Of a DNA stretch of 64,000 nt, positions 1 to 16,824 are shown one piece after another. A program made the translations under genes and the position numbers. Every line of letters begins with the position of its first letter. Position 1 is the stretch's first letter. Under the pieces are notes generated by a model. That model was not told the DNA's origin. It saw nothing but the letters and a program-made list of their open reading frames with translations, and made no database searches. Where the stretch lies: assembly GCA_042577965.1 (NCBI GenBank), contig JBHPDK010000002.1:6635-70634 (forward strand), written 5' to 3'. The DNA comes from Patescibacteria group bacterium (GTDB lineage Bacteria; Patescibacteriota; Gracilibacteria; UBA1369; PNNO01).

Positions 1-843
1 TATATTTTGATTGAAGTTGATGATACTGATGCAACTTTTGGTTCTCTTGTTTGGAGCGCTGCTGACGCGAACAATCCTGTGCAGTTAAGCTCTTCAGCAA
101 GCGATGGGGACAGAATTGAAGATATTGAATACGGTGGTGCTGCATTAACTCCGGGAAATACTTATTATGTAAGAATGGCATTCTCAAATTCATCTGGACT
201 TACCCGTGCAGACCGTGGCCTTTGGACTCACCTTGATATGGGCAACCATTATCAGTTTGATATTGCTTCTACTTACATGGAAATAACAAATGCATGTAGC
301 GATCTGATTGAAGTTGTTGATACAAATGCAGGCGGAAGAGCAGTTGGGCAGCCATTAAAAAATTCACAATATGACAGATATGGTGAAGATACCTGTGACT
401 TTACTATCAATTCAACAGATACATCGTGGAAGGTTTATTACAGTATGGCTCCGACAATAACAGATATGGAGGACAGCTCAGACACATTTACTTTTGCTGC
501 AATAGTAAATCCTAGTGATTATCAGATGGATTCCACTGGTGACAATACATATATAGAAGAAGAATATGGATTTCACATCGATGATATTTCAGGAACATCT
601 GCATATATTCAAGCTGATACTGAAACTGGAACACATGATTATGATGACTGGACTCCTGGAACAACAGGCCAGTATGTATTTGATATCGAAACAGATGCAA
701 GTAAAGACAAAATTTTAGATGGCGGCGGCGGCACTATTACCGGCGGCCAGTTCCGCTTATATATACATGGAGGCGTAGATGATTTTACTGTCGGCGCCAC
801 TTACGACCTCGACACATGGATGGTAATAACAGGAACACCTTAA
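1..843 (+). CDS. 3' part of a large surface protein (FN3-like domain plus C-terminal WxL/pilin-like module); gene starts before the window
   Basis: Frame is open from the window edge. It is colinear with the last ~330 aa of the next ORF (LTPGNTYYVR / GLWTHLD / EEYGF motifs) and ends GATYDLDTWMVITGTP. Confidence 0.8.
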   Translation, partial: YILIEVDDTDATFGSLVWSAADANNPVQLSSSASDGDRIEDIEYGGAALTPGNTYYVRMAFSNSSGLTRADRGLWTHLDMGNHYQFDIASTYMEITNACSDLIEVVDTNAGGRAVGQPLKNSQYDRYGEDTCDFTINSTDTSWKVYYSMAPTITDMEDSSDTFTFAAIVNPSDYQMDSTGDNTYIEEEYGFHIDDISGTSAYIQADTETGTHDYDDWTPGTTGQYVFDIETDASKDKILDGGGGTITGGQFRLYIHGGVDDFTVGATYDLDTWMVITGTP

Positions 844-848
844 TATAT

Positions 849-3800
849 ATGAAAAAAACACTCACTTACATATCGATTTTAATTGGAATTTTGCTCGGAA
901 GCATCAGCATCTGGATGGTGCCTGGTGTTTTGGCGCAAGATGCCAGTGATGTGGCTGTTGAGATTGAGGTGGATGACGGTTGTAACTGGACAGGCACACC
1001 GTACCTTCCAACATCATCGCTATCAGTAGCGGATAATGAAATTTGTGTGATTCAGGGTTTAAATAGGGCAGCATTAAATGTAACAATTGACGAAGACGAC
1101 GGTGGTGGTGGCCAGCTGGGTGGTAGATTAATTATTGGTTCTGATGTTGTAGAGACTGTCTTTACTGTTGGCGGAACATTTAATGCAAATGGTATTATTG
1201 AAGTTGGAGCCGCAGGAAATCAGCCTGTTAACTCTACATTAATAACTAATGGTAATCTAAACATTTCTGCAACTGGCAGCAATGGTGATTTTGATATTAT
1301 TGAAAACACAAATGCTACACCTTTAAAAGGTATCAATATCGTTGATATAAATAATAATCCAATGCTTGTTGGTAGTGCTACTACAACCGGTAATTTTACA
1401 AACAACGATAATTCAACAAGTACTATTGCTGGCCTTGATGTGTATGGAGAATTTGAAAACTTACATGCCTCAGGTATTATTACTTTTGATGGTTCTGTTG
1501 GTGGTTCATATATCAGAACAGGTTCAACTTTTGATAATGATGGAACTTTAAATGTTAACGCTGACTTCAATGTACAAGGATTAGTTTCCGCTGATAACAG
1601 TGGAGAAGTAAATGTTACCAATGGACATTGGTGGGTAGGATCTACTGACGCAGGTATCGTAACATTCAACAATTCAGGGGATGTTAATATAAACACAACA
1701 GGAAAATGGTTTGCGTCTCAACACAGTACTGCAGCAACAAATACGGGAACAATAACCGCTCCTCAATTCCTTGTTCAGCATGGTGCAACATTTAATAATA
1801 ATTCCGGTGGCTTAATCGACACAAGTGTTTCAGGCGGAATATTTGTAGTATATGGCGATGCCACATATGGAAACGGAACCTTTAATAATAACTCTGGTGG
1901 TATAGTAACTACAGATTTAGTTTGGATTGTAGATCCTGATTTTGGTACTGGCCCTAACTATACTGACCGCCCAACCCTTAATAATAATGATGGAGCTAAC
2001 TTCACAGCAGGTTCAATTGATTTTAGTTGGGATGATTTAGGAGATTGGCTAGATCCTGGTGTATTTGTTGCTTACGGAAGTATTTTAAATAATGATGGCG
2101 AGTTTATAGTAATTGATGACGGTGCTGACGCTGTTAGCATGTATAGAGGAGCAAAATTAAACAACACAGCTAATGGAACATTCACCTTATCTGGTACTGC
2201 TTCTGAAATTGAAATGAGTAAATCAACCGGAGGAGCCTTTACCAGTGAATGCGGCGCAACCGCAGATATTAAATGTCAAATCACAAATACAAATGTTACT
2301 GATGCTGATGCGTTTAGCGTTAGTGGAGACATCACTTTATGGCAATATGCAGAATTGAACAATAACGGGAATATGACCATTAGCGGTGCGAATAATATTG
2401 ATATTGAAGAAAACAATGTTTCTGTAATTAATGGATCAAATGGTAATTTGGATCTCGAAGGTGCAAATGAAGAATTTAACTTTAATGTAACAGTTGATAA
2501 CGATGGAGACATCGATACAACAACTGCTTCAATAGTAATGTCTAATACTGCATCACTTGATAATGCGAGTACCGCAACACTAACTATAGGTGGAACTACC
2601 ACTGATTTAACTCTAAACAACTCTGCTGAAATTACAAACTACGGAGTAATTAATGTTCCTGATGATGTAACTTTGGTTACCGGCGGAACTCCGGTTACAA
2701 GCATTGTAAATACTGGAAGCAGCGCAAACTTCAATGTTTTAGGTAGTGACGGAAACAGTGTTTTAGAATTACAAGTCGACACAACATTCGACAATGAAGC
2801 AAGCGCAACTGTTGATGTTGACAGTGTAGCAAGCACAGACACAGACAATGGTATGCTAAAAATCTTTGGTAATGGCGTGGGTAATGATGCAATTTATACA
2901 AATGATGGAATAACCAGAGTTCATATATTAAATATAGGGGACACTAATACAAGCACTGATGGCGGAGTATTAGTTAATCAGGGAACTGGTGGTGAATTTG
3001 ATGTAACGTATTACTACACAAGCGTTAAGTCAATTGAGATATATAGAGGAAGCATAACAAATACCAGTACATTCTATGATGGCGGAACAGATAATCCAAG
3101 TTTTGATATTGGCGGCCAGATTCAGGCCATCGGAATTACAGGAGACATTGCCACAGTGACAAACGAAGGAGTGGTTGCGTTCAGGGAACGTCCATATTTT
3201 GAAGATTATTCAATTTTGGATCTTGATGCAGGACGATGGGTGTCATCAGCTAATGCAGGTACGAGCGCTCAGGATCACTACACATTTATTATAGGTGGAA
3301 CCGGCCCTTTCAATTCTGTTCTGGATATTGAAAGCGGAGCAACTTACAGTGGCCAGTTATATTGCGGATGGGGTGCTGATAGTTGTCAGGCATATAACGA
3401 CGGAACAATTAATCGTGTTGATTTGGATGGTGTATCTACAACAAGATATTTAAGTGTATATATGAATAACAGTTCTGTTTTTGATAATTACGGGATAGTT
3501 GATTTTCGTGGGAACATGATTGCAAATAACTCAATTTTTAATAACGAATCTACTGGAACAGTTTCAGCTGATACTTTTGGAAGTCTTTATGCTAATAATG
3601 GTGGCACATTCAATAATAATGCTGATGCAATAACTACTGTTAATCAAATTATAATTCAGAATGCAGGTTCTTATTATTATCAGGATGAGAGATCAGCGAG
3701 TTCTGCTACAAAAACTACTACTACAACCGGATTAATTGATATTGAATCAGGAGGCGCCTTCCAGAATGAAGACCTTGTGCAGGCAGTAGGTTTAAGTGTT

Positions 3801-6800
3801 AATGGTAATGGCAGTTATTTCTATCAAAAAGCCGGTGTTACAGCCTCGAATTCAGTAACTACTTTAACAGCTGCATCTACAATTGATGCAAGTTCAGGAA
3901 CAGCAACCGTGGATATTGATGCTGGTACAACCATTACAACAAATAATGCATTTAGTGTAGATACCGGCGGGGATGTGGATAACAGCGGAATCCTTACTTT
4001 AACCGGAACAGGTACAAATAATCTTCAGGTAGATGGAGGTAATTACGAATCCGGCACAAGTTCAACTCTTAATCTTGCTGGTACTCCGGGTATGCAAATG
4101 AGTTTAAATACTTCAACAGCTGAAATAGCAGGTACAACTCCAGGTAGTCCATCTTTCCAGAATAAAGGTGGCGAATTATGTTTAGGACAATGGAACGTAG
4201 GAGTGGGAGGCCCAGCTTCTAACTGTATTGATTCAACAAACACTATTACTTTAGGCGGATTAACAGTTGATACACTTAACAACACAACTTCTGATGATAC
4301 TGATGTATATATAGGGTCTAACCTTACAGTGCAGGGTGATATTGATGTGGATTCCCTTGATGACGCTGCTGTTAGCGTTGATATCACACAAAATTCAAGT
4401 TCATATTTACAAATAACACAGAATGGAGATTTAAGTATTAATGAAGGTTCAACCGGCCAGGGTATTACATTCACTTCAGGCGGGCATATGGATATTCAGG
4501 GTAGCGGCCTCGGGAATCATGGGCATATTAGAGCAGAAGGTGATGCAACAGTAAGTCTTAATCATATAACTGATGATTATGACATCGGGAGTTTATGGCT
4601 TCTGGCAAGCAATAGTGAAGCTGCATCCGTTACTTTAGCTTCAGGCGCAACTCTAAATCTTAATGATACTCATACAAGTAATCTTGGTGCAGCAGTAATT
4701 ACATTAAATGATAATAATGGTGACGGCTCTGCAACATTCACAACAAACGGAACCACAAATCTTAATTCAGGCAGTACACAAAATTTAATTCTTGGATACA
4801 CAACTTCAACAGACGGAACAGGCGAACTCGAAGTCGGAAGCGGCGGATATATAGAACATGATGAGATTGGCGGCTCATCAGGTAATGTTGATATTAATGC
4901 AACAGGCCGACTTGAAGTAATTGCTGACGCTAACGCAGACAAAGACGCAGACTTTTACGGGACTTTAACAGTTGGCGGTGATTATAATGATGGAACCGGC
5001 AACCGCGGCGCATATATTGGTGGGCAACTGGAAAATGAAACAACTTTAACAATTGAGTCCGCTGGCTTTATGGATGTGGGCGCGAACGGTGATGTAACTG
5101 TAGATGGCTCAACCACTTCAGTAAGCGGAAATATGGAGCTCGATGGCACACTTAATTCAGGCGACCTCACTGTTACTTCAACTGGTGTTATTTCATCAGG
5201 TGATGGCAACCCAACAGTTTCAGGCTCTGGTTGTGGTGTTGGCGGCAATTTTGGATGCGGATCTTCAAGTAATTTTTATATAAATGCAGGTGATGTAAAT
5301 GTGCAGTCAGGCGGTGCAATAAGCTCAGATGCAGTAAGTACTGTTGTTTCTTCTGATACGGGTGGTGGTTCTCATGGTGGTGAAGGTGAAGGAATAACCG
5401 GTACAGGAAAAACATATGGAAAAGTTAAATTAGATGAAACAGGAACTCCAACTTACGGTGATTCAACTAATGCACCATCTTATGGGCAAGCAGGTTACAC
5501 TGGTGCTGCTGCAGATGGTAAAGGTGGTGGTGGTGTAAGAATTTACTCAAACGGTGACTTTACAAATAACGGTACAATCAGTGCTAATGGTGCAGCTGGA
5601 ACTACGTACAGTGGTGCTGGTGGTACAGTTATTATTGTTCATCAACCAACTTTGTCTGGAGCATACTTTATTGGCGATGGGCCAATTACAGCTAATGGTG
5701 GTTCTGGAACTAATGCTGGTGGTGGTGGACGTGTAATTATCAAGTCTCCTTTATTAGATGATCCTGACTTCTCAAGTTATGATGTTGGAGAAGACGGCGG
5801 ATCAGTTAGCGCTGCTCCTGGTGCAGGCGGTGGTGCAGCTGGTACAGTTGTATACCTTGGAGACGGACACAACGATGGTACGGGCTCAACGGTTTATGGC
5901 ACATTGATTGTTGACCAGGCAGGTGAAGCTTCAACTGTTCAAACAGAAATTCCAACAGGAGCCCCTGCAGGCAATATTAAATTTGCCCGAATTGAAGCCA
6001 AAAATGGCGCAGAGGTATATTATGCAGCTGATCCTGTGAACGATCCAACCTCTTGTTACACTCTCGACACAAGTACAATTGATCTTAATGGTGGCGCATG
6101 TAATGAAGAGCCGGATAAACCGGATACTTTATATATAGGTGCTGACCCGACTGGTGCTCAATCAGGTACTGAACCTGGCTACCAGCTAACCGACGGTGTT
6201 GATAATACTGTTTTGTCAGTTGCTGATATAACTCCTCAGTTTAGTGTGATCTACAGACATCCTGAAGCTGCTGATGCAGTCAAAATGCAAATTCAGGTTG
6301 ATGATGCAAGTGCAGCCTTTGGTTCTATAATCTGGGATTACACTAAATCAGGTGTAACCGAAGAAGACCTTAGTACTCTCTCAAACGGCGAGCGCTCAAT
6401 GGATATTGAATATAATGAAGACAGTGGGGCAACTTCTGACTTAAGCCCTGGCAACACATATTACGTTCGTACAAGATTTTATGACGCAACTGATACTCCG
6501 GGATTATGGAGCCACTTAGACTATAACGATCATTATAAATTTCAGATATCAACTTATGCAGCAATCTGGATAGATAACTGTAATAATGGTGCTTATACAG
6601 ATTTATTAATAACGCAGGATGGGACAAGAGGAGGTGCTGATATGGCAAATATTGATGGCCAGAGATTCGGTTATGGAACCTGTGATGTACATGTTTCAAC
6701 TTCAGATACAACATGGGATGTAGACTTTGGAATGAATGCAAGCGAAGGCATAAGTCAGGCATTAGCATTTAATACTGATCCTGGAAATGCTGGATTTAGT

Positions 6801-7190
6801 ATCAATCCTATTAATAATGCAGGCAACGATTGTACAGTTGATGTGGATGGTATAGATACAACTGAAGAATATGGATTTAATATTGAAACATATGCTGATG
6901 GCGCAGGAACAGATAATCAGCTAATACATGATAACGTAGAAGCTGACACTGAATGTCCTACTTATTGTTCAGCTAATGCATATTTCAATGACAGCACATC
7001 TACTCCAGCAGACGCAGATTGTGTATTTGATGTTGAATTAAGCACTGCATTAGATACAATAATTGATGTTGTAGGTAGTGTCTTAAACGAAGGTATCTTT
7101 ACAATTAGAATACTCGAACATGCATACCAGAGTGATGCCGGCACTTACACTCTTGACGCAGAATTTACGTTAACAACAACAACACCTTAA
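849..7190 (+). CDS. Giant secreted adhesin-like protein (~2113 aa): N/G/T-rich beta-helix-like passenger, Gly-rich domain, FN3-like domain, C-terminal WxL/pilin-like module
   Basis: Start at ATG 849 gives a signal peptide ending VLA|QDA. Contains repeated FNNxG/TIT motifs and GGGSHGG/GGGGxVxI motifs. Ends AGTYTLDAEFTLTTTTP, with no C-terminal TM. Confidence 0.8.
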   Translation: MKKTLTYISILIGILLGSISIWMVPGVLAQDASDVAVEIEVDDGCNWTGTPYLPTSSLSVADNEICVIQGLNRAALNVTIDEDDGGGGQLGGRLIIGSDVVETVFTVGGTFNANGIIEVGAAGNQPVNSTLITNGNLNISATGSNGDFDIIENTNATPLKGINIVDINNNPMLVGSATTTGNFTNNDNSTSTIAGLDVYGEFENLHASGIITFDGSVGGSYIRTGSTFDNDGTLNVNADFNVQGLVSADNSGEVNVTNGHWWVGSTDAGIVTFNNSGDVNINTTGKWFASQHSTAATNTGTITAPQFLVQHGATFNNNSGGLIDTSVSGGIFVVYGDATYGNGTFNNNSGGIVTTDLVWIVDPDFGTGPNYTDRPTLNNNDGANFTAGSIDFSWDDLGDWLDPGVFVAYGSILNNDGEFIVIDDGADAVSMYRGAKLNNTANGTFTLSGTASEIEMSKSTGGAFTSECGATADIKCQITNTNVTDADAFSVSGDITLWQYAELNNNGNMTISGANNIDIEENNVSVINGSNGNLDLEGANEEFNFNVTVDNDGDIDTTTASIVMSNTASLDNASTATLTIGGTTTDLTLNNSAEITNYGVINVPDDVTLVTGGTPVTSIVNTGSSANFNVLGSDGNSVLELQVDTTFDNEASATVDVDSVASTDTDNGMLKIFGNGVGNDAIYTNDGITRVHILNIGDTNTSTDGGVLVNQGTGGEFDVTYYYTSVKSIEIYRGSITNTSTFYDGGTDNPSFDIGGQIQAIGITGDIATVTNEGVVAFRERPYFEDYSILDLDAGRWVSSANAGTSAQDHYTFIIGGTGPFNSVLDIESGATYSGQLYCGWGADSCQAYNDGTINRVDLDGVSTTRYLSVYMNNSSVFDNYGIVDFRGNMIANNSIFNNESTGTVSADTFGSLYANNGGTFNNNADAITTVNQIIIQNAGSYYYQDERSASSATKTTTTTGLIDIESGGAFQNEDLVQAVGLSVNGNGSYFYQKAGVTASNSVTTLTAASTIDASSGTATVDIDAGTTITTNNAFSVDTGGDVDNSGILTLTGTGTNNLQVDGGNYESGTSSTLNLAGTPGMQMSLNTSTAEIAGTTPGSPSFQNKGGELCLGQWNVGVGGPASNCIDSTNTITLGGLTVDTLNNTTSDDTDVYIGSNLTVQGDIDVDSLDDAAVSVDITQNSSSYLQITQNGDLSINEGSTGQGITFTSGGHMDIQGSGLGNHGHIRAEGDATVSLNHITDDYDIGSLWLLASNSEAASVTLASGATLNLNDTHTSNLGAAVITLNDNNGDGSATFTTNGTTNLNSGSTQNLILGYTTSTDGTGELEVGSGGYIEHDEIGGSSGNVDINATGRLEVIADANADKDADFYGTLTVGGDYNDGTGNRGAYIGGQLENETTLTIESAGFMDVGANGDVTVDGSTTSVSGNMELDGTLNSGDLTVTSTGVISSGDGNPTVSGSGCGVGGNFGCGSSSNFYINAGDVNVQSGGAISSDAVSTVVSSDTGGGSHGGEGEGITGTGKTYGKVKLDETGTPTYGDSTNAPSYGQAGYTGAAADGKGGGGVRIYSNGDFTNNGTISANGAAGTTYSGAGGTVIIVHQPTLSGAYFIGDGPITANGGSGTNAGGGGRVIIKSPLLDDPDFSSYDVGEDGGSVSAAPGAGGGAAGTVVYLGDGHNDGTGSTVYGTLIVDQAGEASTVQTEIPTGAPAGNIKFARIEAKNGAEVYYAADPVNDPTSCYTLDTSTIDLNGGACNEEPDKPDTLYIGADPTGAQSGTEPGYQLTDGVDNTVLSVADITPQFSVIYRHPEAADAVKMQIQVDDASAAFGSIIWDYTKSGVTEEDLSTLSNGERSMDIEYNEDSGATSDLSPGNTYYVRTRFYDATDTPGLWSHLDYNDHYKFQISTYAAIWIDNCNNGAYTDLLITQDGTRGGADMANIDGQRFGYGTCDVHVSTSDTTWDVDFGMNASEGISQALAFNTDPGNAGFSINPINNAGNDCTVDVDGIDTTEEYGFNIETYADGAGTDNQLIHDNVEADTECPTYCSANAYFNDSTSTPADADCVFDVELSTALDTIIDVVGSVLNEGIFTIRILEHAYQSDAGTYTLDAEFTLTTTTP

Positions 7191-7203
7191 CTTATTAAAT
7201 ATA

Positions 7204-8181
7204 ATGAAAAAACTAAACCTAATAATCTCGATCCTCACTCTAACAATGCTCTTCACAGCATTCGCACCTATGACCAATGCAATTGGCGCTTCACCTCTCA
7301 GAGTTCAACTCGAAGCAGCACCTGGCGAAACTGTTGAAGGAATGGTTCGGGCGCAGAATAGTAAAGATGAAGATCAGGTTGTTGTTTTAATGAAAGGTGA
7401 CTTTTTAGTTGATGAGAAGGAGGATCTGCAGTTTATGTATGAATATGACGAAACAAATAAATGGAGCCTTCAAAATTGGCTTGATTTAAACGAAAACAAC
7501 ATACCGGTTGGCCCTAATGAATCAGTTGAAATTAAATATCAAATCGAGGTTCCGCAGGATGCAGCATCGCAAAGTTATTATGGAGTTGTGTTTGTTCAGA
7601 GTCAGGATCCTGAAATTTTTGAAGGGCTTGGTGGAGTTGGTGTTCAGGCAAATGTAGCTCAGCTTGTTTTGCTTGAGGTAACTGGTGATCTAAAAAGTGA
7701 TGTTGAGGTAAAAGACATGAAGCTTGTTGAAGAAAACGCAGGTCATCGTTTTGAAACAACTGTATTTAACAACGGAAACACTCATGATGCTTCAACTGGA
7801 ACAATAATAGTCACAGATTCAAAATTAAATATACTTGAAGAGCTTGATTTTAATAAAGCAAAACACAATGCCCTGCCTGAAACACAAAAAAATTATATTG
7901 TAATGTGGGAGAAGTTTGCAGAATATGAAGCTGGAATTTATTATGCTTATCTAAATGTTAATGATGAAAATAATGAATACTTAAGCGCAGAACTTAAATT
8001 TGAAATAACAGATCAGGCAGAAATTGAAATTCTTAATCTTAAAATCGGACGAAGCTATACGGAAGCCAAGGCTGCTTATACTGATATTCCTGTAATTCCA
8101 CTTGTTATTATTGGATTCGCTCTAATAGTAGGACTCATCGCAAAAACATGTTGCAGAAAAAAAAGAAAAACAAAAAAATAA
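7204..8181 (+). CDS. DUF916/WxL-interacting (PapD-like Ig) membrane-anchored protein
   Basis: Signal peptide; SP-x-x-x-x-L-x-x-x-PGET start; conserved W and VPQDA..SYYG; second Ig domain with NNGNTH; C-terminal TM and basic tail. Confidence 0.65.
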   Translation: MKKLNLIISILTLTMLFTAFAPMTNAIGASPLRVQLEAAPGETVEGMVRAQNSKDEDQVVVLMKGDFLVDEKEDLQFMYEYDETNKWSLQNWLDLNENNIPVGPNESVEIKYQIEVPQDAASQSYYGVVFVQSQDPEIFEGLGGVGVQANVAQLVLLEVTGDLKSDVEVKDMKLVEENAGHRFETTVFNNGNTHDASTGTIIVTDSKLNILEELDFNKAKHNALPETQKNYIVMWEKFAEYEAGIYYAYLNVNDENNEYLSAELKFEITDQAEIEILNLKIGRSYTEAKAAYTDIPVIPLVIIGFALIVGLIAKTCCRKKRKTKK

Positions 8182-8190
8182 TTTAATATA

Positions 8191-8766: not shown

Positions 8767-8813
8767 GTGGTATAATGATTTAACGTGCCTGAAAAAAAAG
8801 TATACTCAAGGCG

Positions 8814-8842
8814 TTGACTTCTAAGGCGAAATGTAGTACAAT
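8814..8842 (+). promoter_or_regulatory. sigma70 promoter of the small pilin-like gene
   Basis: TTGACT-17-TACAAT, followed by a ~130-nt leader. Confidence 0.6.
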
Positions 8843-8980
8843 ATATAATGACAAAAAGAAAAATTAATAAAAAATTCGACACATTTAATCAATAATTTCC
8901 GTTCTGGTCGAGACGGATGAGAAGGGAAAACAAAGAGGGGTGGGGTCAATTATAAACGTTTATAATTAACCAAAACAAAA

Positions 8981-9604
8981 ATGAAAAAAGTTTTAGCAAT
9001 TCTTGCTGTTGTAGCTGTTGTTGCAGTTGCTTCAGTAGCTCACGCTCAAACTAGTGCAGTTCAAGTTTCTGGTTCAATCAGTACAACATTAGGTCTTACA
9101 CCATGTACTGTTGCACTTGGAACAATTACAACTAGTAAATCTACTGCTACCTGTACTACAGATCCAGTTGTTACTGCGAACACTGCAAATGGTTATAATA
9201 TCACTTTAGAATTCACAACTGGTACTCTTTTAAACACAGGTGAATCTAGTGATACCATAGCTAATCTTGTAGATCTTACTGCAGATGATACTTGTCCAAC
9301 TGGTCCTGGTGCAACTGATTGTTGGGCTGTTGGTTCTGTTGTAGTAGGTTCTACTCCAGATCCTAATTTCTCTGCTGCTGCAGATAGTTTCAATGATACC
9401 GAAGGAAACTGGGGGACAGATCCCGAACATCCAATTCCAACTGGTGGTGCAGCTACTATCGTTGACGATGGATCATCAGGTGATCAAACAGCTAGTGGTT
9501 ATGATTTCGACATGACTTTCTCAGTTGTAGCAAATAATGTTGATCAAGAAGCTGGTACTTACTCAAATACTGGTGGAACATTAACTATTGCTGCTAATCC
9601 GTAG
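8981..9604 (+). CDS. Small secreted WxL/CsuA-like protein; putative major fibre subunit
   Basis: Signal peptide AHA|QTS; 4 Cys; TANGY motif; ends AGTYSNTGGTLTIAANP; strongly T/A-ending codons; has its own promoter and terminator. Confidence 0.7.
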   Translation: MKKVLAILAVVAVVAVASVAHAQTSAVQVSGSISTTLGLTPCTVALGTITTSKSTATCTTDPVVTANTANGYNITLEFTTGTLLNTGESSDTIANLVDLTADDTCPTGPGATDCWAVGSVVVGSTPDPNFSAAADSFNDTEGNWGTDPEHPIPTGGAATIVDDGSSGDQTASGYDFDMTFSVVANNVDQEAGTYSNTGGTLTIAANP

Positions 9605-9619
9605 TCAGCTTAATAAAAT

Positions 9620-9652
9620 AAAAAAGCGAGTTTTTTCAAACTCGCTTTTTTT
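9620..9652 (+). terminator. Intrinsic terminator
   Basis: AAAAAAGCGAGTTT-loop-AAACTCGCTTTTTTT. Confidence 0.85.
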
Positions 9653-9704
9653 ATATATACATATATGTTATATTGTCGAACGATTAAATAATTAACCTAA
9701 AAAA

Positions 9705-11048
9705 ATGAAAGTAAAAAAATTAATTACTTTTTTAATTACTGTTCTATTTACAGCTATTTTGGCATTTACTACTATTTCAACTGTTTTTGCAATAATAATA
9801 TCTCCAGCAACATTTGAATATACTGTATCCCCAGGCGAAACAGTAGAAGATTCAATTACTCTCACAAATAATGAAAATAGTCCGAAGTTTTTAAAAGCAT
9901 ATCTGAATGACACATATATTCTTGCAAGAAATCAAACTAAGCAATATACAGATGAAGCTCAGCCACGAGGAATTATCAATTGGACAACTATACTAGAAGA
10001 TCCTACCCAAGTAAATCCAGGAGAAGAATTTACATTTAACTTTATAATCCGTATCCCTAAAGGTGCTGAACCTGGCACTTATTCAGGTGCAATAATGGGT
10101 TCTGCTTTTGAAGATCTTGAAACCGCAGGTTCTGCGGTAGGCTTAGCACCAAGGGCTGCAGGAACGATGAATATTACCGTTGAAGGAGATTTTGAAGAGA
10201 AGTTATCAGGTGAAAATTTCACTATAGATCCTCTAAAAAAGGAACAAGGCTCTATAGTATTTGTTTTTGAAGCGAAAAACGAAGGTAATGTAAAGATTGC
10301 TCCTATTGGAGAAATTAAAATTTATGATAAACAAGGCAACATGGTGCCAGGTGTATATGCTGTAGTAAAAGAATTCGAAAATGAAAAAGTAATAACTGAC
10401 AGATTAGATGTAATTCCATTCAATCCTGGAAATGAGTCTATTTTGCCTTCTGTAACAAGAGGAATTAATACCGGCTGGGAAAATCGGAATGTAGAACCTG
10501 GCGAGTATAAAGCAAAATTAAATTTATACTATGGACAAGATAATACAAAGATTGAACTTGAAACAGATATGTTTGAAATAGAAGAAAATTTTCAATTAGC
10601 TGATTTAGCAGCTGATTCGGCATTCAAAAGCTCTCTACCAATTACATTTTCAGCAAAACTGAAGAACCAAGGATCTGTTGATTTAAGTCCAACAGGTAGC
10701 TTTTCAATTAAAAATATTTTCGGAATGGAGAAAAAAAGGGTAGATCTATCAGCTGATGAATTGAAAATAAAAGGCGGAGAAGAAAAAACAATTAATAATT
10801 TAACATGGGATACGGGTTTTGCATTTGGTATTTATAGTGCAAATCTTGAGCTAAGGGTCGGCGACCAAACCTATATTGCTACAACTACATTCTGGATTTT
10901 AAGCTGGTGGCAGGTACTTATTACAATAATTGTTGTTTTAGTTATTATTTTTGCTTTATATAAAGGGATTCATGGGTATCTTGCAATGAAAAAAAAGCTT
11001 GAAACAAAAGAATCAATAGAAGGAACACCTAAAGAAACAACCGAATAA
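9705..11048 (+). CDS. DUF916/DUF3324-like membrane-anchored protein with three Ig-like domains
   Basis: ISPATFEYTVSPGETV, IPKGAEPGTYSG, and two KNxGxVxxxPxG domains; C-terminal TM. Confidence 0.7.
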   Translation: MKVKKLITFLITVLFTAILAFTTISTVFAIIISPATFEYTVSPGETVEDSITLTNNENSPKFLKAYLNDTYILARNQTKQYTDEAQPRGIINWTTILEDPTQVNPGEEFTFNFIIRIPKGAEPGTYSGAIMGSAFEDLETAGSAVGLAPRAAGTMNITVEGDFEEKLSGENFTIDPLKKEQGSIVFVFEAKNEGNVKIAPIGEIKIYDKQGNMVPGVYAVVKEFENEKVITDRLDVIPFNPGNESILPSVTRGINTGWENRNVEPGEYKAKLNLYYGQDNTKIELETDMFEIEENFQLADLAADSAFKSSLPITFSAKLKNQGSVDLSPTGSFSIKNIFGMEKKRVDLSADELKIKGGEEKTINNLTWDTGFAFGIYSANLELRVGDQTYIATTTFWILSWWQVLITIIVVLVIIFALYKGIHGYLAMKKKLETKESIEGTPKETTE

Positions 11049-11072
11049 GCTCTGTTTTGATTTATACTTTTT

Positions 11073-11106
11073 AAAAAACACTAATATAGAAAATTAGTGT
11101 TTTTTG
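11073..11106 (+). terminator. Intrinsic terminator
   Basis: AAAAAACACTAAT...ATTAGTGTTTTTT. Confidence 0.7.
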
Positions 11107-11115
11107 TATATAAGC

Positions 11116-11144
11116 TTGCCATTCTGAGTGTTTTGGTGTATAAT
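11116..11144 (+). promoter_or_regulatory. sigma70 promoter
   Basis: TTGCCA-17-TATAAT. Confidence 0.65.
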
Positions 11145-11173
11145 ATTATTGAAAATAAAAAACAAATAAAACG

Positions 11174-13219
11174 ATGTTTAAAAAATTCTATTTATTTACT
11201 ATTACATTAATATTTGCTTGTAATTGTACTGTTGCCTTAGCACAAACAGGCGCTGTTAGTGTTTCTGGTCATGTTTTACCAAAAGATATTACAAATCTTA
11301 CTGCGGTCGATGTAGTTCTCGGATCAGGGGAAGTGGCCTTAACATGGACAACAAGCATTACTTCTAGTGTTGATACTCAAAGAGTAGAAATTACTGGTCC
11401 ACAAGATCCTGGAATTAATTTCACAACAAAAAATTTACCATTTAAAATAATTGACGGAGGTGTTGGGCCTAGTGCAGCAGATAATTACGCTAATTATGCT
11501 CCTTTTACTAATATCACTGGATTAGTCCCGGGAGAAGCTTATATTTTTAGGATTGTTTCTATTGTTGCGGCCCTCGAAAGTCCTGGCGCACCCCCTGATG
11601 CCCAAATAATATTTATCCCTGGCTCAGCACTCCCTCCCCCATTCCTCCAGGATGAACCAGATATCACGCCTACCTCAACTACAAATACTTTATATTGGGA
11701 TAACGGTGGTGTAACCGATGCAACTTTGGAATGCAGAATTATTGCAAGTACAACAGACCTTTATTCTGATCCTCTTGGAGAACCAGTTGGTGGTGTAGGT
11801 GGTCTTGGCGACAGTGGATGGGAAGATTGTCCGGATCCTTTGGTCACATATGAATACGAATTCACCGGCCTGACCCCAGGCACAACATATTACTATCACG
11901 TTCAGTCACGCTCAGCTGTTGATGGCTTGAGCCCTTTTTCAAATGTAGAAGATTCTCAGCAAAGGCCTCCGACTCCAATCCCTCCTCCTGCAGATGATGA
12001 AGAACCTGGTGATGGCCCTGGTGGCGGCGGCGGAATAATCCCAGGTACATGCGGAAACGGAATTTTGGATCCTGTTGAGGAATGCGATGATGGCAATACA
12101 GATGATGGTGATGGTTGTTCTGCAAGTTGTCAGGATGAAGAAGCAGCTGTTTCTCCGGTAGCAGTAGTATGTGGTAATGGAATTGTTGAGCCTCCTGAGG
12201 AATGTGATGACGGCAACACAGATAATGACGATGGGTGTTCGTCTGTTTGTGTAGTTGAGCCTGAACATGCGGTGGCTCCTGCTATAGCAGCAGTCTGCGG
12301 TAATGGAACTGTTGAAGCTCCTGAAGAATGTGATGATGGTAATACAGATTCAGGCGATGGCTGTTCTGACACCTGTTTAATTGAAGAAACAGTTTGTGGT
12401 AATGCAATTGTTGAAGCTCCGACTGAGGAATGTGACGATGGTAACACCACAAGCAATGATGGATGTTCAGATACGTGCCAGTTAGAGGAAATTGTCGAGG
12501 TTGTGCTTGAAATAAGGGGTGCTCCGCAGTATCGTGTTACAAATTTCAAAAGAATGGCTGAAGAATCAATGGTAAATGAATCACTTTTAGATCTTACAAA
12601 AACATCACTAATAGCACAAACAGACACTACTTCCCCTGCAGCTCTTACTCCTACTGCAGGCCAAACTGACACAAGAACAACAACAATAACAACTCAAGAG
12701 TTGGCCGTAGGTGTTGATGCTGATCCAGCTGACATTTATAGAATTTATAATACTCCAAATCGTGGATTAAATGCGCAACTTGGCATATACAAGCCAATTA
12801 TCACAAATCTTGATGTTATAAGTATACAATTGGACAATTTTGGTAATGCCAGCATCCCGATTACCATTGTAGCTGGAACTTACGATTTTGCGCTTAATGG
12901 AGAGGCCCACAACGCAACAATCATGAGAGATAAAAAAATTACATCTGAAACCAAGGTTCTCACCCTCGACTTCACATTTAAAGACACAGTTTTCCAAGTA
13001 GCTGGCGACAACGTAGATGATAATCGCGTAAATGCGCTTGATATGAGCAGAATACTCGGTTCATATAAATCCAAGGGAATTAATATTAGCGACTTCAATA
13101 AAGATCTAAATCCAATAGTTAACGCACTCGACATAGCAATCCTCATCTGGAACTACAAAATGGAAGGACAATACCTGATCCCGCGTGAAGTCGTTATCCC
13201 GCGTGAAGTCGCGATTTAA
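11174..13219 (+). CDS. Secreted protein: two FN3 domains, Pro/Gly linker, four Myxococcus-type Cys-rich (DUF4215) repeats, C-terminal dockerin-like domain
   Basis: GLVPGEAY and GLTPGTTYYY; CGNGxxExxEECDDGNxxxxDGCSxxC four times; duplicated GDNVDDNRVNALD / DFNKDxxxxVNALD Ca-loop-helix motif. Confidence 0.8.
   Translation: MFKKFYLFTITLIFACNCTVALAQTGAVSVSGHVLPKDITNLTAVDVVLGSGEVALTWTTSITSSVDTQRVEITGPQDPGINFTTKNLPFKIIDGGVGPSAADNYANYAPFTNITGLVPGEAYIFRIVSIVAALESPGAPPDAQIIFIPGSALPPPFLQDEPDITPTSTTNTLYWDNGGVTDATLECRIIASTTDLYSDPLGEPVGGVGGLGDSGWEDCPDPLVTYEYEFTGLTPGTTYYYHVQSRSAVDGLSPFSNVEDSQQRPPTPIPPPADDEEPGDGPGGGGGIIPGTCGNGILDPVEECDDGNTDDGDGCSASCQDEEAAVSPVAVVCGNGIVEPPEECDDGNTDNDDGCSSVCVVEPEHAVAPAIAAVCGNGTVEAPEECDDGNTDSGDGCSDTCLIEETVCGNAIVEAPTEECDDGNTTSNDGCSDTCQLEEIVEVVLEIRGAPQYRVTNFKRMAEESMVNESLLDLTKTSLIAQTDTTSPAALTPTAGQTDTRTTTITTQELAVGVDADPADIYRIYNTPNRGLNAQLGIYKPIITNLDVISIQLDNFGNASIPITIVAGTYDFALNGEAHNATIMRDKKITSETKVLTLDFTFKDTVFQVAGDNVDDNRVNALDMSRILGSYKSKGINISDFNKDLNPIVNALDIAILIWNYKMEGQYLIPREVVIPREVAI
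13178..13211 (+). repeat. In-frame 16-bp direct repeat with 18-bp period at the gene end
   Basis: ATCCCGCGTGAAGTCG at 13178 and 13196 (IPREVV-IPREVA). Confidence 0.9.
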
Positions 13220-13503
13220 TAATATTTCATATCATAAAGATCCTTCAATAACGGCCCTGGCAAAGGCGCACACCCTCTTCGCCCAATCTCCATCTGTTTC
13301 TTATTAAACCAGTGCCTTATCACAGTGCGAAGTTCCACATCTCCAACAAAAAATCCCACCCCATCCTGCGTAGTAAAAGCCTTTAAAAAGACTTTAACAA
13401 GGGTGGCGAGACCAATCCCTAATTGGTCCTGACATTTTGCTTTAGCCATTTGGTAAATCTCGGCATCCATGCGGAGGTTTAGTTGCTGCTGTTTTTTAGA
13501 CAT
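13216..13503 (-). CDS. Putative ribbon-helix-helix DNA-binding protein
   Basis: QQLNLRMDAEIYQMAKAKC..LGIGLATLVKVFLKAF fits the RelB/DinJ/Arc beta-alpha-alpha pattern. Confidence 0.65.
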   Translation of the reverse strand: MSKKQQQLNLRMDAEIYQMAKAKCQDQLGIGLATLVKVFLKAFTTQDGVGFFVGDVELRTVIRHWFNKKQMEIGRRGCAPLPGPLLKDLYDMKYY

Positions 13504-13521
13504 AATAGAAGGGGTTAAGGA

Positions 13522-13571
13522 TTAACTACACTATCAAAATTACTAGTAATTTACTAGTAAATAGTAGAGTG
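13522..13571. repeat. Left copy of a 50-bp inverted repeat containing tandem TTACTAGTAA palindromes
   Basis: 47/50 identical to the reverse complement of 16843-16892. Confidence 0.95.
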
Positions 13572-13701
13572 TAGTTTTCGTCCACCTCCTGCCAACATGC
13601 TGCTACGCCTCCCGCCGCATATCTCTCCGCAAATTCCCCTAAAAACCCTTTCAAAAACTGCCTTTTTATGATATAATATATAGAGAAAATAAAAAACAAA
13701 A

Positions 13702-16700
13702 ATGCTTAAAAATATAACAGCCCACATTCTTGCTTTCATCATAGCTTTTACGAGCTTTGTTCCGGCTGCCATGGCAGCTTATTTTTATGTAGATGATAAT
13801 CCAAATTTACGAAAAGGATGCCCAGGGCAAATCAATGTTATGCTTAATACAGAAGGCTCAAATGTGCTTGCAGCAGATTCAACAATGAACTTTAGTACAG
13901 CTGAAATGAGTGTGGTAAATATGGCCCTGAATGTGGCGCTTCCAATGCAGACTTATAATCAGATCACAGGCACTTTACTTGAACTTAGTGGGGCAAGGCT
14001 TCCTGCAACCGGTGCATTTAATGGCAATGGTATTTATGGAATTCTGGATATTATTCCGGATATAGCAGCAGCCAGTGTGACTTTGAATTTTTCACCTGAC
14101 CTTAATGTTGATAATGTAATTGCCGAAGAAATCACTTTTGCAAATATAATCAATATACCGGATGGCGCACAAGACGGAACTATTGCAGTAAAAGACAGAT
14201 ACAATAAAGAAGTTGATGGCGTAGGGTTCTGTACACCGGATTTGAATCCTCCTACTGTTAACTTCATTCTTCCTCCAAATGGTTCAGGCGGCAACCCGGC
14301 TAATCAGCCAAATGAAATCTTTTCAATTCAGGATGACCGTGCAGGTGTAGATATTTCAACTTTATCGTACACAATTGAGGGAGTTAGCTATACAAACACT
14401 TCTGCTCAAACAGATTTATCAGAGTCAGGTGGTGTTCATAGAGTTGAAACAACATTTACTTCAGATTGGAGCCCAGGTCAAAAAGTAGACATCAGTGTTT
14501 ACGTATGTGACTTAAATACAGACCCGGCTCCTAATTGCAATACAACAACCGGCCACTTTAATATTTATTCTCCTCCTCCTCCTTCACCGGTTTGCGGTGA
14601 CGGAATAGTTACTTACACAAACGGCGAACAATGTGACGACGGCAATACTGACAACGACGACGGATGCAGTGCTCATTGTTTTATTGAAATAGAGCCTGTG
14701 GTTTGCCCTGATATTCCAACAGATGTACCTTGCCCTACAGCAGGCTTAACAATTGTTAAAGACTTAAGTGCAGCGCTTCCTCCAGGCCAACTCCCTGTTG
14801 TAACAGGTGTTGGTGCAGCAACTGAAGAAGAGATTCTTGCAGGCGAATATCCTGCAGTTGGAACTGCAATCAAAAAAGGCATCCCAGGATGTACACGTGA
14901 AGATATCACAAAAGATGTACTTGCTGAATTTAACGTTGAAGACAGATACAGTGCAAAAGATATAAGATGTTTAGAGGATGTTGAACACTGTATGCTTCCT
15001 TTCTTAATGCACAGCGCTTACCCGGATGCAAATCCTGCTGGCAACAGATATTACCCTGATGTTTACCTAAGTGGCGAGCGAAGCGAGCCACTTCTTGAAG
15101 ACGATTCAGGGCCAATTTCAGGACAATCAAAAGATGCAATCCACTTTAGTACCCGTGAAGGTATGCTTCATGGATTCTATTTAGACTATATGAACTTAAG
15201 CCCTTTCAGACCACAATGGAACATGACAAGAATACAGATTATTAAAACTCTAAACTGGGCTGTCTTTGGCCAGTTATGGGAATATGAAGAAGAATACTAC
15301 GCAGAAATCGGAGGCGAACAAAACTTAGGCCAGGTACGAAGGCTCGCTGCTGACTTAACACAATGGTGGTATCCAAGATACTACAACTTTGCATGCGACA
15401 AAGGCGTATTTAATTGCGACCCTATGATGAACTTTGGTCCTGATGAAATTTGTTCACCTGAATGGAAGCGTGAAATCTTTGCAAGATACAAAGTATATTT
15501 TGAAGGCCAAAAACAAGAAGTCGCAGATATGAATGAAGACTCAGACGCCGACGGCCTTGTTGATTATGATGAATCAAGAGTCTTCTTAACAAATCCTGAA
15601 AACAAAGATACAGACGCAGACGCCCTCGGTGACGGCGATGAAATAGTAAAATACAAATCAAATCCAAAACTTACAGATACAGACTTTGATGGCCTTGATG
15701 ACGGCGACGAAGTAAACAAATACAAAACAAATCCTGTGCTGCCAGACACTGACGGCGATACATATCCTGATGGAATCGAAATTCGCGAAGGAACAGATCC
15801 TTTAGATCCAAACAGTTCCCCTGTAGATGAAGATGGCGATGGCATTCCTGATAAATGGGAATTACAATATGGAATCAATCCTCAAAACGGTGTAGAAGAC
15901 TTTGATGGCGATGGCCTTTCTGATTTTTTCGAACACAGGTATAGCACAGATCCAACAAATCCGGACACGGATGGCGACGGACTTTCTGACGCTGACGAAG
16001 TGCTTCTATACGGAACAGATCCTAATGAATACACAAACCTTTCAGAACTCGGAGTGCGAATTACAAATATAATGGACCAAATGACTCTTACTGATCCACG
16101 TCCTTTACTTCAGGGCTTCGCTCCTTTAGAAGGAATGGAAGTTGAAATTATTTTACGAAACGAATTCGGCAACGAAGTACTACTCGGAAGCGCTATAACA
16201 GATGTTAATAACGCATGGGTATTCACCCCTGAATTTGACATCCTGGACGGCGAATTCTATTTGTTAGCCAAAGGTCTCGATACCAAAAACAAACGAATTT
16301 TAGAATCTCCACTCATCGGAGTAATAATGAATTCAAAGCTTCAGGTAAGCGAGCCACAGCCAGAACGACTCGGCGACACAAACATCACAGAAGAAGTACT
16401 TCTTGAAGGCTTGAGTATTGAAACCCGCGATTCTGCTCCAATTTTAATCGGACGAACAGGCTTTAAAAACAAAGTAATTGCAACATGGCAGTCAGTACTC
16501 GGTACTTCTGCAATCGTAGCTGACCTTGCTGGCGGCGAATTCAGAATCCAGGCTCCAAAAGAGCTCGCACCCGGTCCCCACAAAGTTTCAGTTTACTCAA
16601 TCCGCGACAAAGACAACGCAATGAGTAAAGTTGTTACTGTTAACTTCGAAGTCAAAGAACCATTTGCTGCAATCCTTCGCGGCGTAGCAATGGGCAAAGA

Positions 16701-16824
16701 ACTTATTTTCCCTCTATGGGTATGGACTATGATCTTCCTGGGCGCAGGCCTATTACTTGGCGGCGGCATGTGGATCGAACACCACAGAAAAAAGAAAAAA
16801 GACGGCAAAACTGAGAAGAAATAG
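13702..16824 (+). CDS. Membrane-anchored surface scaffold: cohesin-like domain, Ig-like domain, DUF4215 repeat, SLH-like domain, TSP3-type Ca-binding repeats, Big/Ig domains, TM
   Basis: N-terminal INVMLNT..AAD..MNF..NGNGIYGIL cohesin pattern; YPDV..DAI..EGMLHGF..FRPQWNMTR SLH pattern; about 8 DTDGDGLxDxxE repeats; C-terminal TM and basic tail. Confidence 0.75.
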   Translation: MLKNITAHILAFIIAFTSFVPAAMAAYFYVDDNPNLRKGCPGQINVMLNTEGSNVLAADSTMNFSTAEMSVVNMALNVALPMQTYNQITGTLLELSGARLPATGAFNGNGIYGILDIIPDIAAASVTLNFSPDLNVDNVIAEEITFANIINIPDGAQDGTIAVKDRYNKEVDGVGFCTPDLNPPTVNFILPPNGSGGNPANQPNEIFSIQDDRAGVDISTLSYTIEGVSYTNTSAQTDLSESGGVHRVETTFTSDWSPGQKVDISVYVCDLNTDPAPNCNTTTGHFNIYSPPPPSPVCGDGIVTYTNGEQCDDGNTDNDDGCSAHCFIEIEPVVCPDIPTDVPCPTAGLTIVKDLSAALPPGQLPVVTGVGAATEEEILAGEYPAVGTAIKKGIPGCTREDITKDVLAEFNVEDRYSAKDIRCLEDVEHCMLPFLMHSAYPDANPAGNRYYPDVYLSGERSEPLLEDDSGPISGQSKDAIHFSTREGMLHGFYLDYMNLSPFRPQWNMTRIQIIKTLNWAVFGQLWEYEEEYYAEIGGEQNLGQVRRLAADLTQWWYPRYYNFACDKGVFNCDPMMNFGPDEICSPEWKREIFARYKVYFEGQKQEVADMNEDSDADGLVDYDESRVFLTNPENKDTDADALGDGDEIVKYKSNPKLTDTDFDGLDDGDEVNKYKTNPVLPDTDGDTYPDGIEIREGTDPLDPNSSPVDEDGDGIPDKWELQYGINPQNGVEDFDGDGLSDFFEHRYSTDPTNPDTDGDGLSDADEVLLYGTDPNEYTNLSELGVRITNIMDQMTLTDPRPLLQGFAPLEGMEVEIILRNEFGNEVLLGSAITDVNNAWVFTPEFDILDGEFYLLAKGLDTKNKRILESPLIGVIMNSKLQVSEPQPERLGDTNITEEVLLEGLSIETRDSAPILIGRTGFKNKVIATWQSVLGTSAIVADLAGGEFRIQAPKELAPGPHKVSVYSIRDKDNAMSKVVTVNFEVKEPFAAILRGVAMGKELIFPLWVWTMIFLGAGLLLGGGMWIEHHRKKKKDGKTEKK

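Follow-up and report, generated by a model that had tools for sequence, protein, structure and literature searches.

A conserved Peregrinibacteria gene cluster predicted to encode an usher-less donor-strand pilus with a dockerin-like base subunit

The locus analyzed here occupies positions 1 to 16824 of a 64,000-nucleotide stretch of DNA (the window) from a Patescibacteria group bacterium (assembly GCA_042577965.1, contig JBHPDK010000002.1). The source genome, designated G000, comprises 1.26 Mb in 58 contigs and is estimated to be 75% complete; the window corresponds to G000:C2:6635-70634, and the locus begins upstream of it, at G000:C2:2. All genes of the locus lie on the + strand (Table 1). 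An original prediction, made from the letters of the window, had interpreted them as a novel surface fiber that lacks both usher and sortase, assembles by donor-strand complementation, and is moored to the cell by a dockerin-cohesin pair. From the evidence below, the locus probably encodes a chaperone-guided, usher-less pilus assembled by donor-strand exchange. A machine of this kind has been reported in Candidatus Mycosynbacter amalyticus and further members of the candidate phyla radiation (CPR) as the Pam pilus (Troman et al., bioRxiv 2026.03.03.709456, PMC13278184) and, in Enterococcus faecalis and other Bacillota, as the Elr/WxL pilus (Sleutel et al., bioRxiv 10.64898/2026.10.17.759780).

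Table 1. Features of the locus (window coordinates unless a contig is named)
Feature	Position	Strand	Description
Giant adhesin 1, C-terminal 280 amino acids	1-843	+	Acceptor-type C-terminal module; full gene G000:C2:3329-7477 (1382 amino acids), start upstream of the window
Giant adhesin 2	816-7190	+	2124 amino acids from the first ATG (start at 849 = MKK start); signal peptide, long Gly/Thr/Asn-rich region without Pfam match, fn3-like stretch, C-terminal module
C-terminal module of giant adhesin 2	6546-7187	+	Aligned to the pilin family profile (hhalign)
P0003	7204-8181	+	Two-domain, WxLIP/DUF916-like; signal peptide, C-terminal transmembrane helix, basic tail; proposed tethered chaperone
P0004	8191-8766	+	191 amino acids, short relative of P0003; signal peptide, C-terminal transmembrane helix; possibly a truncated chaperone
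P0005	8981-9604	+	207 amino acids, secreted, all-beta, signal peptide; proposed major pilin
P0005, N-terminal extension	~9047-9090	+	Low-confidence region, proposed donor strand; followed by a beta-sandwich in which two Cys pairs and the C-terminal strand are conserved
Hairpin	9620-9651		Palindromic, 14-bp stem plus T-run, 16 nucleotides past the P0005 stop; resembles a terminator in either direction
P0006	9705-11048	+	Three-domain, WxLIP/DUF916-like; signal peptide, C-terminal transmembrane helix, basic tail; proposed tethered chaperone
P0007	11174-13219	+	681 amino acids, signal peptide; proposed base (terminator) subunit; no acceptor module, no transmembrane helix
P0007, N-terminal strand	~11243-11280	+	Pilin-type strand, followed by fn3 domains and four Cys-rich acidic repeats (DUF4215)
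P0007, C-terminal end	12887-13216	+	X-module-like stretch plus dockerin-like module
P0008	13702-16824	+	1040 amino acids, membrane-anchored; proposed cell anchor; N-terminal 190-amino-acid domain (weak cohesin-like signals), one Cys-rich repeat, bacterial TSP3 calcium-binding repeats, Ig-like stretches, C-terminal transmembrane helix, basic tail

Giants 1 and 2 have approximately 300 C-terminal residues in common (BLASTP, 33% identity over 315 aligned positions, E = 2e-26). By the same method P0005 has no detectable similarity to them (best E values of 0.67 and 1.0), and a small hhalign comparison of a two-row pilin alignment with three giant C termini gave an E value of 0.55; this was superseded by larger profiles. 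With 34 pilin-like rows (profile A4) and six giant C termini (profile A9), hhalign returned a probability of 82.5% and an E value of 9.9e-6 over 134 columns, extending to the very C terminus. The pilin profile also matches the end of a 2,772-amino-acid open reading frame (ORF) in the related genome G007 (E = 3.7e-4), and the best-kept part of the module is its last strand. Judged by these profiles, the C-terminal module that had been predicted for both giants and the small protein is real but strongly diverged, with P0005 joined to the giants by the family profile only. A third giant secreted-type ORF of at least 1,106 amino acids lies upstream of the window (G000:C2:2-3322) and runs off the contig start; its C-terminal ending is similar to those of the other giants, with two extra Cys near the end. 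It was not retrieved at an E value of ≤1 by phmmer with the last 320 amino acids of giant 2, and the assignment of a module to it rests on alignments. In G007 (C2:320353-323309), a second pilin-type gene (E = 2.8e-26) adjoins the 2,772-amino-acid ORF that ends in the pilin-like module, which suggests that there is more than one such locus per genome.

The second feature shared between subunits is found at the opposite end of the polypeptide. The mature N terminus of P0005 displays an alternating conserved pattern with a Gly-x-Ile core, and P0007 is identical to it at 8 of 10 positions, compared with 3 to 4 of 10 for the six other proteins of the locus. The strand consensus of the Elr system, [S/T]8-x-[G/A]10-x-[V/I]12-x-F14, has no exact match in P0005, there being no Phe at the last position. 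When pilins and P0007-type proteins from eight genomes were compared, same-genome pairs were identical at a mean of 6.1 of 10 positions versus 4.7 for cross-genome pairs, and the observed sum was reached by 21 of 40,320 re-pairings. Such co-variation is expected of two strands that have to fit one and the same groove, and it provides modest to moderate evidence that they do. As the N-terminal strand is absent from the giants, these would be acceptor-only subunits, and as the module is absent from P0007, this protein would be donor-only. The original prediction had described P0007 as a protein with the N terminus of the small protein, no module, and a dockerin at its end, a description that the 8 of 10 identity, the absence of the module, and the dockerin-like end (considered below) all bear out.

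The three proteins interleaved with these subunits, P0003, P0004, and P0006, are paralogs (phmmer E values of 1.3e-11 and 5.4e-5). Each contains an N-terminal and a C-terminal hydrophobic 19-mer, the latter at residues 290 to 308, 145 to 163, and 393 to 411, respectively, and always followed by a basic tail; their prediction as three membrane-tethered DUF916-like proteins thus held, with PF06030 detected only below threshold. A profile of 13 P0003/P0006-type proteins (A5) was used to examine their wider kinship. PF06030 was detected in seven of its 13 members (best E = 6.7e-5) and PF11797 in four (best E = 1.3e-5), in all cases below the cutoff. Against the Protein Data Bank (PDB), A5 matched the WxL-interacting protein EfmWxLIP1 of E. 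faecium (9i1y_A, E = 9.2e-7; 9i25_C, E = 1.4e-6), with the next chain at an E value of 0.04 and none lower. The best aligned stretch covers the first domain, including the most conserved alternating segment of the family, and a weak second stretch covers domain 2. By position, the alternating segment may correspond to the chaperone donor strand described in the Elr preprint. No match to the PapD family (PF00345/PapD_N) was found among 13 chaperone-like proteins at an E value of ≤0.1. All A5-type chaperones have a signal peptide and a C-terminal transmembrane helix; such a helix is reported for 96.7% of WxL chaperones (bioRxiv 10.64898/2026.10.17.759780) and likewise for PamC and PamD (PMC13278184).

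To gauge how widespread this family is, A5 was searched against 301 sampled Patescibacteria genomes (G191 among them), of which 151 contained a match at an E value of ≤1e-5, often several per genome. In the same 301 genomes, the WxL family PF13731 was detected in 19 at an E value of ≤1e-3, with six over the cutoff, and each of these 19 belongs to the 151 that contain A5 matches. At two CPR loci, a Pfam-positive WxL protein is followed immediately downstream by an ORF that matches A5 (E values of 3.7e-16 and 5.3e-15), and in genome G063 the PF13731 match and the A5 match are 359 bp apart. Since A5-matching ORFs adjoin WxL proteins in CPR genomes, pairs of a WxL protein and a chaperone exist outside the Bacillota.

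Among 1.84 billion representatives, 31 proteins were found to be related to P0005 at an E value of ≤1e-3, with seven more identified in related genomes; a narrower homolog search returned only P0005 and one relative. Within the same family, seven of 12 genomes contain a relative of P0005, as against none of 28 other genomes of the order. The original prediction had proposed synteny as a check, and the order of giant, P0003-like, pilin, P0006-like, P0007-like, and P0008-like genes proved to be kept in all seven pilin-bearing relatives, which represent four genera. In relatives the P0006-type gene always follows the pilin gene. The P0008-type gene directly follows the P0007-type gene in all seven and also in further genomes of another family, and the triple of chaperone, P0007-type, and P0008-type genes occurs in a Peribacteria metagenome-assembled genome (L027) as well.

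From the domain content of the proteins, the WxLIP homology, the shared module, the shared co-varying N-terminal strand, and the gene order, we infer how polymerization, the order of subunits, and the action of the chaperones would proceed. All parts would be exported by Sec, and P0003 and P0006 (perhaps also P0004) would donate a beta-strand to newly exported subunits and thereby hold them. P0005 would be the subunit of the shaft. The giants, with an acceptor module and no donor strand, could be placed only at the distal tip, as adhesins, and P0007, with a donor strand and no acceptor module, would end growth at the base. These roles of shaft, tip giants, tethered chaperones, and strand-only base had been assigned in the original prediction; they fit the sequence evidence gathered and mirror two experimentally characterized systems. 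The small-protein gene had also been credited with its own promoter and terminator. The terminator is represented by the hairpin listed in Table 1, but promoter-like sites occur at chance frequency (28 found versus 27.9 expected), and the promoter was not substantiated. A strong hairpin in this position, immediately past the P0005 gene, would suit a major subunit that is expressed at a high level.

The same genes could instead encode a non-filamentous surface complex, in which the WxLIP-like proteins hold the giants and P0005 through the C-terminal modules of the latter, much as WxL/csc clusters were viewed earlier, and P0005 is an adaptor or minor subunit. WxLIP homology indicates binding partners, not polymerization, and there are at least three giant adhesins for a single small-protein gene. 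Furthermore, structural matches of P0005 to pilins are weak (Z scores of ≤5.5), and the WxL protein ElrC of the Elr system is described as having no demonstrated tendency to polymerize (bioRxiv 10.64898/2026.10.17.759780). However, simple holding leaves no role for a co-varying N-terminal strand common to P0005 and the module-less P0007, and the hairpin just past the P0005 gene is in keeping with a major subunit. In addition, the homologous systems that have been examined experimentally are reported to form filaments (both preprints). A complex of this type is considered unlikely, and a donor-strand pilus remains the preferred explanation.

The fold of P0005 was examined using an AlphaFold2 model built from a 34-row alignment, which is all-beta. 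Residues 15 to 33, comprising the end of the signal peptide and the first mature residues, have a predicted local distance difference test (pLDDT) value below 50; therefore, the N-terminal extension would not be packed onto the domain. Comparison of the model with 48,161 chains using VIA-align gave a best Z score of 6.3 and none of ≥8 (7zl4_A, 5.2; CupE 8cio_A, 5.0). Among the top 1,000 chains from Foldseek, chaperone-usher subunits accounted for 13 of the best 50 VIA rows. The best pilin row was the Csu pilus (7zl4_B; Z score of 5.5, root mean square deviation of 3.1, 115 aligned residues), followed by BPSL1626 (5.5) and EcpA (5.3), with CsuA/B, FimF/G, CfaE, CS20, and PapE also among the best 50. 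No solved WxL or Pam chain was found among those 50 rows, which is not evidence for a different fold. Structure neighbors in the Atlas included Csu/SCPU, WxL, and CS1 pilin clusters, with template modeling (TM) scores of 0.44 to 0.52. Feature neighbors in the Atlas were CPR clusters (0.96) and a PF13731 cluster at rank 17 (0.93). The PF13731 cluster, toward WxL, and a structural neighbor of 347 amino acids from Saccharimonadota (TM score of 0.69 by query), toward Pam, can be taken as leads only. Pilin profiles searched against PDB sequences returned nothing meaningful (A3, flagellin, E = 0.87; A4, YoaG, E = 0.27). Overall, the modeled fold is compatible with a pilin but inconclusive.

A number of results weigh against a pilus of this kind or against individual parts of it. 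The P0005 model is of middling confidence (mean pLDDT of 74.8, predicted TM score of 0.70), viral jelly-rolls and carbohydrate-binding modules score level with pilins against it, and Z scores in the range up to 6.3 can, by the tool's own statement, reflect merely a common beta-sandwich arrangement. PF13731 has no match in the source genome at an E value of ≤10, and alignment of the pilin profile with five Pfam-positive CPR WxL proteins gave an hhalign probability of only 2.1. For the chaperones, PF06030 scores 17 bits in P0003 and 19.5 bits in P0006, the sole such matches in the genome, against a cutoff of 27.3 bits, and PF11797 reaches an E value of 0.78 in the source genome; indeed, the curated Pfam cutoff was reached by no family for chaperones, pilin, dockerin, or cohesin. 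The co-variation of the N-terminal strands must be read with the fact that four of the eight genomes have a cross-genome partner scoring equal or higher and that the eight genomes are kin. At the presumed anchor, the profile of the P0008 N-terminal domain matched no PDB sequence at an E value of ≤10. Finally, the existence of a filament is a prediction from the genes.

How the fiber would be fastened to the cell is a separate question. In P0007, the fn3 domains directly follow the strand (Pfam fn3, E = 3e-7), and the C-terminal 110 amino acids are conserved (profile A6). When A6 was compared with the PDB, 11 matches were obtained at an E value of ≤10, and all are dockerin-bearing; the best is the X-dockerin of CipA (2b59_B, E = 3.5e-4), with query positions 12 to 100 aligned to positions 64 to 151 of the chain, a span that includes both the X-module and the dockerin. 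Pfam Dockerin_1 (PF00404) was detected in P0007 at an E value of 0.033 (15 bits, compared with a cutoff of 22.9) and in six of seven orthologs at an E value of ≤1 (best, 1.4e-4), also below the cutoff. The assignment of a dockerin to the end of P0007 can thus be regarded as reasonably supported. P0007 has no LPxTG motif, no C-terminal hydrophobic segment, and no transmembrane helix apart from the signal peptide. Its Cys-rich acidic repeat (DUF4215/TIGR02232) is abundant in the secreted proteins of the genome, as a further 11 ORFs, on contigs C32, C19, C27, C10, C31, C24, C4, C12, and C57, match P0007 through the repeat (best E = 1e-32).

The partner had been predicted to be P0008, as a protein that starts with a cohesin-like domain and ends in a membrane anchor. 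The anchor is clear (hydrophobic residues 1000 to 1018 and a basic tail), but for the cohesin-like start only leads were obtained. P0008 itself has no match to Pfam Cohesin (PF00963), which was detected in two of seven orthologs at an E value of approximately 0.05; in the three Atlas clusters closest to the N-terminal domain (score of 0.90), PF00963 is present in 13%, 93%, and 18% of members. Prediction of a complex between residues 26 to 190 of P0008 and the C-terminal 110 amino acids of P0007 (seven rows each), with two calcium ions, gave scores of 0.12 and 0.09 relative to a mark of 0.32; this prediction, made without controls, counts neither for nor against binding. The cohesin identity of the domain is therefore unproven by these sequence comparisons. 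The single LPxTG string in the eight proteins checked is an internal LPATG at residue 100 of P0008, within its N-terminal domain (window positions 13999 to 14013), which is kept in four of seven orthologs and lies approximately 900 residues from the C terminus, where it forms no classical sorting signal. The absence of usher, sortase, and LPXTG from the window had been a further element of the original prediction. The first two stand: no usher (PF00577) was found in the genome, which is 75% complete, at an E value of ≤0.01, and there is no sortase in the locus, the only one detected in the genome (PF04203, E = 8e-28) being at G000:C10:31826-32254. The third needs amending for the internal LPATG.

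With these data, the dockerin-like end of P0007 may bind the N-terminal domain of the transmembrane-anchored P0008 and so moor the fiber, taking the place of PamR's transmembrane helix or of ElrB's LPxTG/sortase link. We consider this arrangement quite possible, although short of an even prospect; it is the part of the original prediction for which the dockerin is reasonably supported and the cohesin, and hence the joint, is not shown. A donor-strand pilus could also be built from these genes and not be moored via P0008: the end of P0007 might be a calcium-binding module for the cell wall, another scaffold, or the host, or the fiber might be held by a chaperone or shed, with P0008 an independent calcium-binding surface protein that only accompanies the locus. 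The subthreshold signals on which the cohesin assignment rests are in keeping with this, as is the report that Pam pili detach easily (PMC13278184). Moreover, across the 151 genomes of the class, the P0008 N-terminal domain was found in 23 and the pilin family in seven, so that the two are not strictly coupled at the sensitivity used. On the other side are the constant position of the P0008-type gene directly after the P0007-type gene, in all seven pilin-bearing relatives and in another family, and the need of P0007, which has no transmembrane helix or sorting signal, for a partner that retains it at the cell; P0008 has the helix. An unmoored or otherwise fastened pilus is possible but on the doubtful side. 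A dockerin-like module and a possible cohesin-like domain might also suggest a cellulosome-like scaffold assembling secreted enzymes on the cell surface. This is highly improbable, given that no catalytic or carbohydrate-binding family was found in any of the eight proteins, that there is a single dockerin-like module with a single candidate partner, and that the rest of the locus is pilus-like.

P0008 is separated from P0007 by a 482-bp non-coding gap (13220 to 13701), which contains a promoter-like site at 13650 to 13677 (10 of 12 positions, with TG); P0008 may be transcribed on its own. The remainder of the window carries housekeeping genes, for example, dnaN, mfd, and RNase Y. Approximately 3 kb downstream of the locus, at 19803 to 20315 and 18743 to 19441 (both on the - strand), are a gene of the VKOR family (Pfam E = 1.1e-19) and an adjoining membrane protein. 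That VKOR could form disulfides in the conserved Cys residues of the pilin, P0007, and P0008 is pure conjecture.

The locus was compared with known systems, in the case of Pam by published description. Pam pili are described as donor-strand filaments, determined by cryo-electron microscopy, that have neither usher nor sortase, with transmembrane-anchored chaperones and a tip subunit; the terminator, PamR, consists of an N-terminal strand, two FnIII domains, and its own transmembrane helix (PMC13278184). The two systems belong to the same superphylum and, with the roles predicted here, share Sec-exported parts, donor-strand assembly without an usher, membrane-anchored two-domain chaperones with a C-terminal transmembrane helix, an acceptor-only tip, a terminator in which FnIII domains follow the strand, and paired Cys in the pilins (PMC13278184). 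They differ in that Pam pilins are two-domain proteins (38.7 and 55.3 kDa) in which the donated strand is the inter-domain linker, whereas P0005 is a one-domain protein of approximately 19 kDa with an N-terminal strand. In addition, PamT is a small tip protein, whereas the tips here would be giants of 1,382 to more than 2,100 amino acids, and PamR ends in a transmembrane helix, whereas P0007 ends in a dockerin-like module and is followed by a separate transmembrane protein (PMC13278184). The Pam survey located homologs mainly in Saccharimonadia and Microgenomatia, and the available portion of its text makes no mention of WxL, DUF916, Peregrinibacteria, dockerin, or cohesin (PMC13278184).

The Elr pilus is described as a one-domain WxL pilin polymerized by donor-strand exchange, together with a transmembrane-anchored DUF916/DUF3324 donor-strand chaperone; its tip adhesins have a WxL domain at the C terminus, and its terminator is strand-only and carries LPxTG (bioRxiv 10.64898/2026.10.17.759780). 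The likenesses to the present locus are the large tip adhesins with an acceptor domain at the very C terminus, including a beta-helix-like class in the Elr system (bioRxiv 10.64898/2026.10.17.759780), a DUF916/DUF3324-type chaperone with a C-terminal transmembrane helix (profile homology at the E value of 9.2e-7 given above), and a strand-only terminator. Unlike their Elr counterparts, the pilin and giants here have no PF13731 match, the chaperones fall below the Pfam cutoffs, P0007 has no LPxTG and is a 681-amino-acid multidomain protein rather than a 13-kDa terminator, and the organism is a Patescibacterium and not a member of the Bacillota (bioRxiv 10.64898/2026.10.17.759780). The Elr survey applied Pfam gathering thresholds to RefSeq reference proteomes and reported the system to be confined to Bacillota, a chaperone being recognized as one protein of 150 to 800 amino acids in which both PF06030 and PF11797 exceed the gathering threshold; as the chaperones here are below those cutoffs, the locus fails this detection rule. 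In the available portion of the Elr text, neither Pam nor CPR is mentioned (bioRxiv 10.64898/2026.10.17.759780).

More distant likenesses were also considered. Archaic and alternative chaperone-usher pili (Csu, CupE, CFA/I, and CS1) use the same donor-strand logic and are the best pilin-type structural neighbors of the P0005 model, but the present locus has no usher, no outer membrane, and no PapD_N match, and its chaperones are membrane-tethered. In cellulosomes, a large assembly outside the cell is attached through an X-dockerin/cohesin pair to an anchoring protein on the cell. The type II pair of Clostridium thermocellum (PDB 2b59 and 3kcp) contains the X-module and dockerin of CipA that the P0007 C-terminal profile matches; here, however, the match is below the Pfam cutoff, a cohesin fold is unproven for P0008, and a pilus, not enzymes, would be the cargo. 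TasA/camelysin-type and Ena-type fibers were set aside, as general family scans, which included no dedicated search, revealed no SipW-type peptidase or matching family.

The Pam and Elr/WxL pili are already, as described, the same kind of machine as the one predicted here, and the suggestion that the combination had not been described does not stand. Full-text literature searches found nothing joining the candidate phyla radiation with WxL and nothing on donor strand with dockerin and pilus beyond one 2013 review, and for Peregrinibacteria with dockerin they returned only work that, by title and abstract, is unrelated. What is new is the Peregrinibacteria version with a one-domain pilin, evidence from sequence profiles that ties CPR chaperones to the WxLIP family, and a predicted base subunit that ends in a dockerin-like module and not in a transmembrane helix or LPxTG. 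The dockerin-cohesin joint is at once the most original and the least proven element.

CPR bacteria (Patescibacteria) are mostly obligate episymbionts, and how they attach to their hosts is a central open question. As presented in the available text of the two preprints, each pilus is specific to its own group, Pam to CPR and WxL/Elr to Bacillota. A relationship between the two is suggested because 151 of 301 Patescibacteria genomes contain matches to A5, because A5 also matches EfmWxLIP1, and because CPR WxL proteins adjoin such chaperones. It is conceivable, and offered as a tentative proposal, that the Pam and WxL/Elr pili form a single, ancient family of homologous pili in monoderm bacteria, with a core of WxLIP-type tethered chaperones present in approximately half of Patescibacteria, and that Peregrinibacteria evolved a third means of fastening, in which a strand-only base is linked to a transmembrane anchor by a calcium-dependent joint of the dockerin-cohesin type. 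If true, this would place the donor-strand pili of monoderms in one evolutionary frame and extend them to Peregrinibacteria, and a modular non-covalent anchor would explain how the fiber is retained without an usher and without, at this locus, any sortase signal. For the adhesins that recognize the host, the giant tip proteins would then be prime candidates.

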